A DNA stretch of 46,491 bases, taken from the sequence record PP925838.1. One strand, written 5' to 3'. Positions 17,149 to 17,487 of the stretch are shown one piece after another. The notes under the pieces are model-generated. The model saw only the letters and a list, made by a program, of their open reading frames with translations, was not told where the DNA came from and ran no database searches. Both the position numbers and the translations under genes were made by a program. The DNA is from Escherichia phage Chlobot. The first letter of the stretch is position 1. Each line of letters opens with the position of its first letter.

Positions 17149-17487
17149 ATGGCTAAATCAGCAACAGAGCACAAAGCCGATCAGAGAGCCAAGCAAGCAT
17201 CATCCGGTATGCGTAAGCTGGAGCTTGTACTTGATGCTCAGGAAATTGAAATGCTGGAGCGTAACTGTGCCACGCGTCGCTTCAGGCGTGCGCCTTGCGA
17301 GTTTGGTGAGTACATCGCGTTACTGAGCCGCCAGGATGATGCACGTGTGCGCTGGCGTATAAAATCGATCAGCAGAAAACGGTGCGGTAAGTGCGGCGAG
17401 AGAGTTCCTGTTAATTCATGCCCGTGTAATGGTGACTCACAATGCTGGGTGACCAAAGGCTGGCACGAAACAAAATTAATGATATAA
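17149..17487 (+). CDS. Hypothetical protein with C-terminal Cys-rich zinc-ribbon-like motif (112 aa)
   Basis: AGGAAA ribosome-binding site 8 nt upstream; N-terminal basic/helical segment (LELVLDAQEIEMLERN) and C-terminal CGKCGERVPVNSCPCNG. Confidence 0.5.
   Translation: MAKSATEHKADQRAKQASSGMRKLELVLDAQEIEMLERNCATRRFRRAPCEFGEYIALLSRQDDARVRWRIKSISRKRCGKCGERVPVNSCPCNGDSQCWVTKGWHETKLMI

Follow-up and report, generated by a model that had tools for sequence, protein, structure and literature searches.

Analysis of the Escherichia phage Chlobot sequence (PP925838.1; the whole stretch of 46,491 nucleotides is referred to below as the window) points to a small phage protein of 112 residues, the gene of which is followed by a 12-bp palindrome that also accompanies homologous genes in unrelated types of phage. 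The best overall explanation, held with slightly better than even confidence on the basis of comparative sequence data, is that the protein may be a small sequence-specific DNA-binding protein of temperate phages and the linked palindrome its site. Considered alone, the open reading frame (ORF) is an ordinary conserved hypothetical phage gene; the interest lies in the protein-palindrome pairing, which provides a testable protein-site prediction for a family that is labeled "transcriptional regulator" without evidence. This gene-palindrome linkage is new here: in the literature searched, the 12-mer occurs in no paper, and neither the architecture, i.e., a YbfE-like ribbon-helix-helix (RHH) part joined to a four-cysteine (Cys4) module, nor a stop-linked palindrome resembling matS has been described.

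Coding frame, family and genomic setting

The gene for the RHH + Cys4 protein is found on the + strand at 17149-17487, including the TAA stop, where an ATG opens a frame of 112 codons; an SD-like AGGA is seen at 17137-17140, 8 nt 5' of the ATG. A second ORF of 105 residues, with a TTG start (17009-17326), overlaps this frame. The original prediction described both ORFs correctly and quoted the sequence, including CGKCGERVPVNSCPCNG, as it is, but considered the coding frame uncertain, a doubt that can now be removed. The codon-periodicity comparison of both frames that it proposed was made with 22 collinear homologous genes, taken from phages and from bacteria, the latter represented by one genome for each species. 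In the 112-residue frame the pairwise divergence averaged 0.23, 0.19 and 0.55 at first, second and third codon positions, respectively, i.e., this frame is picked out by its third positions, and the periodicity persists within the overlap with the 105-residue ORF. For the same homologs pN/pS is 0.32 in the 112-residue frame and 1.5-1.6 in the other two frames (0.34 and 1.4-1.6, respectively, in the overlap region only), and many homologs carry extra stop codons in the alternative frame. The allele in the window yields a pN/pS of 0.30 when compared with its closest full-length relatives, the orthologs of TL-2011b and phiV10. The coding frame is the 112-residue frame, upon which periodicity, pN/pS and homolog stops agree, and it is almost certain that this ORF is a real gene under purifying selection. 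RefSeq also annotates it as a coding sequence (WP_001129736.1).

The 105-residue ORF is recognizable only at its beginning (residues 1-36 or 1-54, depending on the match), which belongs to the HumD/UmuD' (S24 peptidase) families. The NCBIfam HumD model matches with an E value of 2e-14 and UmuD-like PHROGs match as well, the matched residues being only 1-54 and 1-37; 31 of 36 residues (86%) are identical to residues 47-82 of P1 HumD, a protein of 129 residues of which both ends are missing from the ORF. RefSeq lists the HumD-like piece as a truncated pseudogene ("DNA repair protein"). Because the HumD match ends early and the piece is annotated as a pseudogene, the 105-residue ORF is a relic of humD (UmuD'-like; 17009-17116, + strand) that stays open out of frame into the next gene. 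This relic is not part of the system described here, and it accounts for the overlapping ORF. That the 105-residue frame is a translated gene, as its 105 open codons and HumD-like first 36-54 residues might suggest, or that neither frame is translated, has a practically negligible probability given the pN/pS in the overlap, the extra stops of the homologs in that frame, the end of the HumD similarity at residue 36-54 and the pseudogene annotation.

The + strand from position 16100 to 18500 revealed no sigma-70-like promoter, and the gene is therefore probably transcribed within the long leftward early (PL-type) operon. A LexA box (CTGT-N8-ACAG) is absent from the region of the gene; the sole match in the window, at 31980, is consistent with chance.

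The protein is a member of a known phage family, phrog_536 (profile match with an E value of 7.3e-48, protein residues 1-111 on profile positions 2-114 of 115). Searches returned 394 homologs at E ≤ 1e-3, of which nearly all have 112 residues, and almost all homologs fall in the range of 110-130 residues; at 50% clustering there are 104 representatives, the total from an exhaustive search of 1.84 billion cluster representatives, with identities down to 27% and both halves of the protein aligned. Homologs are found in Escherichia, Salmonella, Citrobacter, Klebsiella, Enterobacter, Pantoea, Erwinia, Serratia, Yersinia, Aeromonas and other genera, and no fewer than 451 viral contigs contain a member of the family, the phages being lambdoid, epsilon15-like, P2-like, Mu-like, N15-like and ZF40-like. 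Named members are epsilon15 gp49, N15 gp46 (hhalign probability 99.5%, 29% identity to the protein of the window), phiV10 p55, TL-2011b gp20 and ZF40 gp22. Databases call the family a transcriptional regulator, a label that is inferred: the literature searched contained no experimental study of phrog_536, and nothing on epsilon15 gp49, N15 gp46, the function of YbfE, or phage proteins that combine an RHH domain and a zinc ribbon. No Pfam, NCBIfam or PADLOC family reached its threshold for the protein, and a PDB sequence search with the single protein returned no match.

The window is a lambda-like E. coli prophage, the stretch being identical to prophages in many sequenced strains, and its lambda-type xis-int pair adjoins ybhC. 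Here, the family gene sits distally in the leftward early operon, flanked by the humD relic and a DUF2513 gene, with xis-int located downstream. The Salmonella lambdoid prophages and ZF40 carry it 5' of Q in the nin region, and the epsilon15-like phages have it as the last of their early genes, followed by the terminase genes; in P2-like Yersinia phages it is located 3' of gpA, in a Mu-like group 5' of gemA and in N15 within the gp41-47 operon. Across these lambdoid, epsilon15-like, P2-like, Mu-like, N15 and ZF40 contexts no constant neighbor was found. The family gene itself is all that these unrelated phage types have in common, and no recombinase is associated with it. At other loci, the 3' flank of the family gene is a recurrent slot for LexA-controlled cargo.

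The two halves of the protein

The N-terminal half (residues 1-74, encoded by 17149-17370, + strand) displays a basic helix (residues 5-18), a putative beta-strand (residues 23-28, KLELVL), a helix (residues 30-43), a loop and a second long helix (residues 52-74). Beta-strand, helix and helix were found in the order that places a protein in the RHH (CopG/Arc/MetJ) superfamily, and a family profile aligned to E. coli YbfE with an hhalign probability of 93% over the basic helix, the strand and both helices. An AlphaFold2 model of the monomer, calculated from an alignment of 43 sequences (mean pLDDT 86.5), displays helices at 5-18, 30-43 and 52-74, followed by a compact Cys-rich segment and a helix at residues 100-108; here, residues 23-28 form an extended coil rather than a strand, which counts against the protein being an RHH reader of DNA. 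A Foldseek search against the PDB returned nothing significant, and the sole return from BFVD was a 46-residue fragment of the same family. From the profile alignment and the model, the N-terminal half is very likely an RHH domain that is related to E. coli YbfE and has a conserved basic helix on its N-terminal side, so that the RHH-like N-terminus proposed originally was largely right.

Groups that share one and the same site differ in the residues of the putative strand (TLTLRL in Yersinia, KLELVL in most groups), and a search for covariation of these residues with the center of the site revealed no simple recognition code. The DNA-facing position 25 is occupied by a glutamate, which is uncommon among RHH readers.

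The C-terminal half (residues 76-112, encoded by 17374-17484, + strand) harbors the pattern C79-x2-C82-x8-C91-x7-C99, followed by the short helix at residues 100-108. In the 43-sequence alignment C79 and C82 are present in all sequences, C99 is present in 42, and all 43 have at least one cysteine between residues 86 and 97. In the window the latter is C91, which across the family is found at that position or within three residues on either side, yielding a family-wide pattern CxxC-x7-10-C-x6-9-C. Residues C93, C40 and H106 are lineage-specific. The pLDDT of the Cys-rich region is about 90, and neither a significant structural match nor a significant sequence match to the module was found. It is likely that this half is a four-cysteine module, presumably stabilized by Zn2+. 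The CxxC...CxC tail described in the original prediction as zinc-ribbon-like thus holds insofar as four conserved, probably zinc-binding cysteines are present; C93, which it included, is lineage-specific, C99 was missed, and a second CxxC knuckle is absent, the only one being C79xxC82. Because the second half-site is C-x7-C (C-x6-9-C across the family) and not a CxxC knuckle, the module is not a classical zinc ribbon, and no zinc-ribbon structure was matched.

The palindrome at the 3' end of the gene

The candidate binding site, identified by comparison of loci, is the perfect 12-bp palindrome GTGACATGTCAC at 17494-17505, which begins 6 nt 3' of the TAA stop, ends 10 nt 5' of the ATG of the next gene and is the only exact copy in the window. 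This palindrome, the most informative feature of the locus, was not mentioned in the original prediction. A palindrome at 0-6 nt from the stop codon is found in 21 of 33 homolog loci, in 17 as an exact copy and in four with a changed center. In most of these loci the TGA stop is located inside the motif (G-TGA-CATGTCAC), i.e., 8 of its 12 bases are noncoding. The stop has moved in the window and in loci L004, L009, L015 and L031, where the motif is retained just 3' of the stop. The DNA 3' of the motif is unrelated between loci, and third codon positions have diverged by 55%; variation within the motif is limited to the two central bases, which defines the consensus GTGAC-N2-GTCAC. The center is AT in most phages and TG in N15 and in a Mu-like group.

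Six complete genomes of phages that carry the gene (255 kb) contain 14 GTGAC-N2-GTCAC sites, where about 0.24 would be expected, and none with a spacer of 0, 1 or 3-7 bp. No N2 site is found in lambda, P2 and P22 (124 kb), which lack the family gene according to an HMM search. A set of gene-bearing viral contigs (1.2 Mb) yields 111 N2 sites compared to 0-2 for each of the other spacers, and seven composition-matched control palindromes occur 0-1 times each; these contigs are phylogenetically redundant, and the counts therefore reflect specificity rather than independent events. All three sites of N15 are the same TG/CA-centered 12-mer, of which one is found on the stop codon of gp46 in the same register, the other two being located within repA and at the end of its operon, respectively.

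N2 sites within the gene or near it are also seen for remote members of the family (26-40% identity), which belong to Mu-like phages, GC-rich phages and others. In L174, one site is found 138 nt past the stop and another between the HNH and small-terminase genes, while a pair of sites 23 bp apart is found at a convergent junction in L178 and L179. The site overlaps the GTG start of the family gene itself in L175, a contig with 67% GC, and in the Mu-like loci L181 and L182 it is found at the equivalent 3' coding end in another frame, where it is read as V-T-G-H. About 15-20% of the gene-bearing loci lack a site in the stretch examined (among them L006, L021, L022, L024, L025 and L034); in the 1.2-Mb contig set, 5 of 79 loci are of this kind. 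A scan of the viral collection with a pattern of 14 specified bases yielded 87 motif occurrences among the matches listed, of which 68 are not at a family gene in the stretch examined. Many of these off-gene occurrences are phiV10-type junction sites of phages that do carry the gene, or plausible chance matches to a 14-mer; four could be assigned to contigs that bear the gene, and another two share a source genome with a gene-bearing contig.

Epsilon15 has three sites, at about 2142, 19517 and 39612, all of them exact copies: one follows the TerL terminator and faces a convergent gene, one covers the TGA stop of gp18 shortly before a terminator, and one is found on the stop codon of gp49; the layout is similar in phiV10 and TL-2011b. 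At such junction sites in related, epsilon15/phiV10-like prophages and viral contigs, one flank is conserved backbone with a terminator hairpin, and the other flank is variable, with no fewer than eight unrelated cargo sequences. Along the transcribed strand, stop codon, site and terminator recurrently follow one another in this order. The P2-like Yersinia prophages have no site at the stop codon; here, the family gene is followed by a cargo gene and then by two copies 33 bp apart. Because some of the sites in ZF40 and N15 are located inside coding regions, placement at the ends of operons is a tendency and not a rule. For annotation of these phages, the gene-palindrome pairing can serve to mark the ends of operons and the slots for cargo.

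Proposed function and comparison with known systems

The protein with the RHH and Zn modules would be the most economical binder of GTGAC-N2-GTCAC because its gene is the only element in common, gene and site are physically linked, the spacing and the symmetric half-sites are of a kind expected for a dimeric reader and the center of the site is specific to the genome. It is moderately likely, as a prediction from sequence, that the protein dimerizes through the RHH sheet and recognizes this element. The invariant half-sites would then be read symmetrically by two subunits, and the two variable central bases would be tuned in each phage. The site is almost always found at the stop codon of the gene itself or directly 3' of it, and it recurs at one or two other places of the same genome. 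As to the effect of binding, any one option can be put forward only tentatively. The preferred one, to which we attach little weight, is a role as a roadblock or insulator at the ends of transcription units, possibly with bridging by the Zn module: the bound protein might mark or insulate these ends during lytic growth, as a roadblock or a helper of terminators, and sites might be bridged, or a partner contacted, by means of the Zn module. This role is favored by the position of the gene at the tail of operons together with the stop-site-terminator layout; the gene is last or nearly last in early operons, and the sites are typically found between a stop codon and an intrinsic terminator, or at junctions of convergent transcription units and variable cargo.

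The half-sites are identical to those of matS, a 13-bp element (GTGAC[AG]N[TC]GTCAC, consensus GTGACATTGTCAC; PMC3603311, PMC8669397), in which the GTGAC half-sites are read by the RHH-containing protein MatP through a helix and a beta-strand inserted into the major groove (PMC8669397). Prophages have been reported to avoid true matS (PMC3603311). The phage motif equals the consensus GTGACATTGTCAC minus one central base, i.e., the spacer is 2 bp instead of 3 bp, and the N3 spacing of matS was never seen in the gene-bearing phage DNA examined (255 kb and 1.2 Mb). This near-identity raises the question of how enterobacterial phages use or avoid the Ter-organizing code of the host. It also lends weight to an unlikely but not trivial alternative, according to which the palindrome is under selection but is bound by a host factor (MatP tolerating 12 bp, or a nucleoid or termination factor) or is a module-boundary or recombination element, the gene merely sitting at the boundary and its product regulating something else. 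A boundary element would fit the epsilon15/phiV10-like extra copies, which are found exactly at the backbone/cargo junctions (at least eight cargoes) and beside terminators, as well as the recurrent LexA-controlled cargo slot at the 3' flank of the family gene. A host factor is harder to reconcile with the private TG center at all three N15 sites, which points to a factor encoded by the genome itself, and may also be harder to reconcile with the occurrence of motif and gene together in the 67%-GC contig and in Mu-like phages; MatP in particular has been reported only from enteric bacteria (PMC7188993). Moreover, lambda, P2 and P22 share the same hosts and have many boundaries and terminators, but have no site. 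As regards recombination, no recombinase accompanies the gene, and 12 bp is too short for homologous exchange.

Quite unlikely, in our estimate, is a phage system that functions like MatP/matS, in which the RHH protein would bind several near-matS sites and the Zn module would bridge them or engage host machinery. Such a system could insulate transcription units as a terminator-coupled protein roadblock, or keep MukBEF or SMC-like defense systems off the phage DNA, and the spacer that is shorter by one base would make the phage sites invisible to the host MatP.

The protein could also be mainly a protein-binding module, antitoxin-like or anti-defense, with the RHH part used only for dimerization or autoregulation, in line with both roles suggested in the original prediction. 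We consider this very unlikely. Because the family gene has no constant neighbor, a two-gene toxin-antitoxin or defense module is disfavored; there is no conserved toxin or other partner next to the gene, the flanking genes being different in every phage type, and the antitoxin-like reading is thus unsupported. The anti-defense reading lacks the same conserved partner and finds no PADLOC match (zero families at E ≤ 1), and in both cases the gene-linked palindrome would be left without an explanation.

Slightly less probable still is that the palindrome acts as RNA, i.e., as a 3'-UTR hairpin that affects stability, termination or translation of the next gene, either without a protein or with the protein as an RNA binder. 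Read on the transcribed strand, most sites have a stop codon on their 5' side and a terminator on their 3' side, which is compatible with this possibility. So is an extended imperfect palindrome, CTCTGTGACATGTCACGGAG, at 17490-17509, specific to this prophage type, which as RNA is predicted to fold with -10.8 kcal/mol (z -2.2) and would pair with, and sequester, the GGAG SD sequence of the downstream DUF2513 gene. The core motif, however, forms a stem of only 4 bp, and the sites of epsilon15 and N15 have no stable fold (z -0.3 for N15). The strict N2 spacing with invariant half-sites and a free center is the signature of a dimeric binder of double-stranded DNA, tandem pairs are found 23 or 33 bp apart, and compensatory changes in the stem, which a hairpin would tolerate, are not seen.

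With sequence-specific DNA binding as the preferred reading, the protein can be compared with known systems. The likeness to MatP/matS is confined to the site and the general RHH fold; the two proteins have no sequence relationship, homology being rejected at an hhalign probability of 0.14%, and MatP has a four-helix bundle and a coiled coil where the protein of the window has the Zn module. The classical RHH proteins (Arc, Mnt, CopG, omega, TraY, the N-domain of TraM and ParD-type antitoxins) are similar in fold, small size and phage or plasmid setting, as well as in the dimeric reading of a short symmetric DNA element, which for the protein of the window is a prediction. These regulators are usually encoded at the head of the operon that they repress, with the operator in the promoter, whereas the gene of the window is found at the tail of an operon with the site by its stop codon; they also lack a C-terminal Cys4 module. 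With P2 Ogr, the TraR/DksA family and lambda Ea8.5 the protein shares its small size, a CxxC knuckle and a location in an early or accessory region of a phage, in the case of Ea8.5 the equivalent slot beside xis. Relationships to P2 Ogr (hhalign 0.3%) and lambda Ea8.5 (0.2%) were rejected, as was a TraR/DksA-like C-terminal half: the PDB match to TraR has an E value of 0.27, hhalign yields 3-7% over the CxxCG knuckle only, and Pfam zf-dskA_traR is matched by no family member. P1 Lxr, which we take to be LexA-linked and located beside humD, was also rejected as a relative (a 190-residue protein encoded on the opposite strand, with no similarity).

Outside the family, there is a likeness to YbfE, in which the N-terminal basic helix, the beta-strand and the two helices can be aligned with those of the protein of the window. 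The NCBIfam equivalog model of YbfE, NF008671, scores the latter at 16.8 bits against a cutoff of 62 and covers residues 9-48 only, and YbfE, unlike the protein of the window, has no Cys4 module. Furthermore, YbfE is LexA-regulated, whereas the gene of the window has no LexA box, though cargo with LexA boxes recurrently adjoins the family gene elsewhere; no GTGAC-N2-GTCAC is found in 6 kb around ybfE. The named members of phrog_536 are similar to the protein of the window over their full length (29-87% identity) and share the two-part architecture. The allele of the window has unusual substitutions at near-invariant positions of the family (R8H, Y50C and I60S) and is nevertheless under purifying selection. 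As in the window, the genes of the named members are found in a distal position of an early operon with the palindrome at or near the stop codon.

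Palindromes at the boundaries of cargo genes

In phages related to epsilon15 and phiV10, the palindrome GTGAC-N2-GTCAC, the candidate binding site of the family protein, adjoins a terminator hairpin and lies exactly where the conserved backbone meets variable cargo. The sites are found at 2262 and 19493 in phiV10 (L165) and at 2142 and 19517 in epsilon15 (L166). The genes beyond the palindrome are convergent and highly variable, and include Bro-N, a YafO toxin and small unknown proteins. Many loci from IMG/VR display the same boundary layout (e.g., L053, L056, L065, L073, L079, L086, L092, L104, L117 and L118). 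The motif is a handy marker for cargo slots.

Tandem pairs of the motif are found in Yersinia P2-like prophages, where the two copies are 33 bp apart (L005, 7696-7740; L033, 7106-7150), and in a phage unrelated to these prophages, where they are separated by 23 bp (L178, 6475-6509). All of these pairs are intergenic and located 3' of cargo genes, in an operator-like arrangement. Phage N15 (L168/L036) harbors sites at 28550, 33237 and 39269, all three with a TG/CA center; one resides within repA, some 620 nt into the gene, and another is found 3' of gene 33, at the end of the repA operon. The variant with a shorter spacing, GTGAC-N1-GTCAC, is present in one copy in the window and two in lambda (L171), against an expectation of about 0.05 per genome.

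Surroundings of the family gene in the window

The arms of the palindrome are extended in the present prophage type, to CTCTGTGAC and GTCACGGAG (17490-17509), and an RNA fold of -10.8 kcal/mol (z -2.2) was calculated for them. According to this model, the extended arms as RNA would pair with GGAG, the Shine-Dalgarno sequence of the DUF2513 gene that follows (17516-17944), and such pairing could couple the palindrome to translation of that gene.

Immediately 5' of the family gene is a truncated pseudogene of humD, which encodes a UmuD'-like protein (17009-17116, + strand). The relic is identical to residues 47-82 of P1 HumD at 31 of 36 positions, and both ends of HumD are absent. The relic is evidence that the place upstream of the family gene was formerly occupied by SOS-type cargo. 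Further upstream, a gene on the + strand (16241-16855) encodes a 204-amino-acid protein of phrog_8310 (function unknown) with a weak SH3_3 match and a signal- or lipoprotein-like N-terminus; it is probably lysogenic-conversion cargo. This gene has an Ea22-like pseudogene on one side and the humD relic on the other, with a terminator-like hairpin 3' of it at about 16925-16955. The operon of the family gene also encodes, 1.5 kb 5' of that gene, a TraR/DksA-family zinc-finger protein (15473-15694, + strand), which was rejected as kin of the family protein (hhalign, 7%).

Three substitutions, R8H, Y50C and I60S, mark the family protein of the window. All three affect residues with at least 90% conservation in the closer alignment of 21 sequences, and 41 of the 43 sequences in the diverse alignment likewise have Y50. 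Despite these substitutions, comparison with phiV10 and TL-2011b indicates purifying selection, and the allele is common in E. coli, with 173 sequences in its cluster.

Putative SOS-controlled cargo downstream of the family gene

In 10 of the 33 homolog loci (L008, L010, L011, L016, L018, L019, L021, L022, L024 and L025), canonical LexA boxes (TACTGT-N8-ACAG) lie 0-200 nt 3' of the family gene. As judged by eye, the product of the next ORF resembles HumD/UmuD in L010 and DinI in L018 and L019; in the remaining loci this ORF encodes a small protein of 63-85 amino acids. The 3' flank of the family gene seems to be a favored slot for SOS-controlled cargo. The N-domain of the family protein itself is kin to YbfE, an E. 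coli protein that is LexA-regulated.
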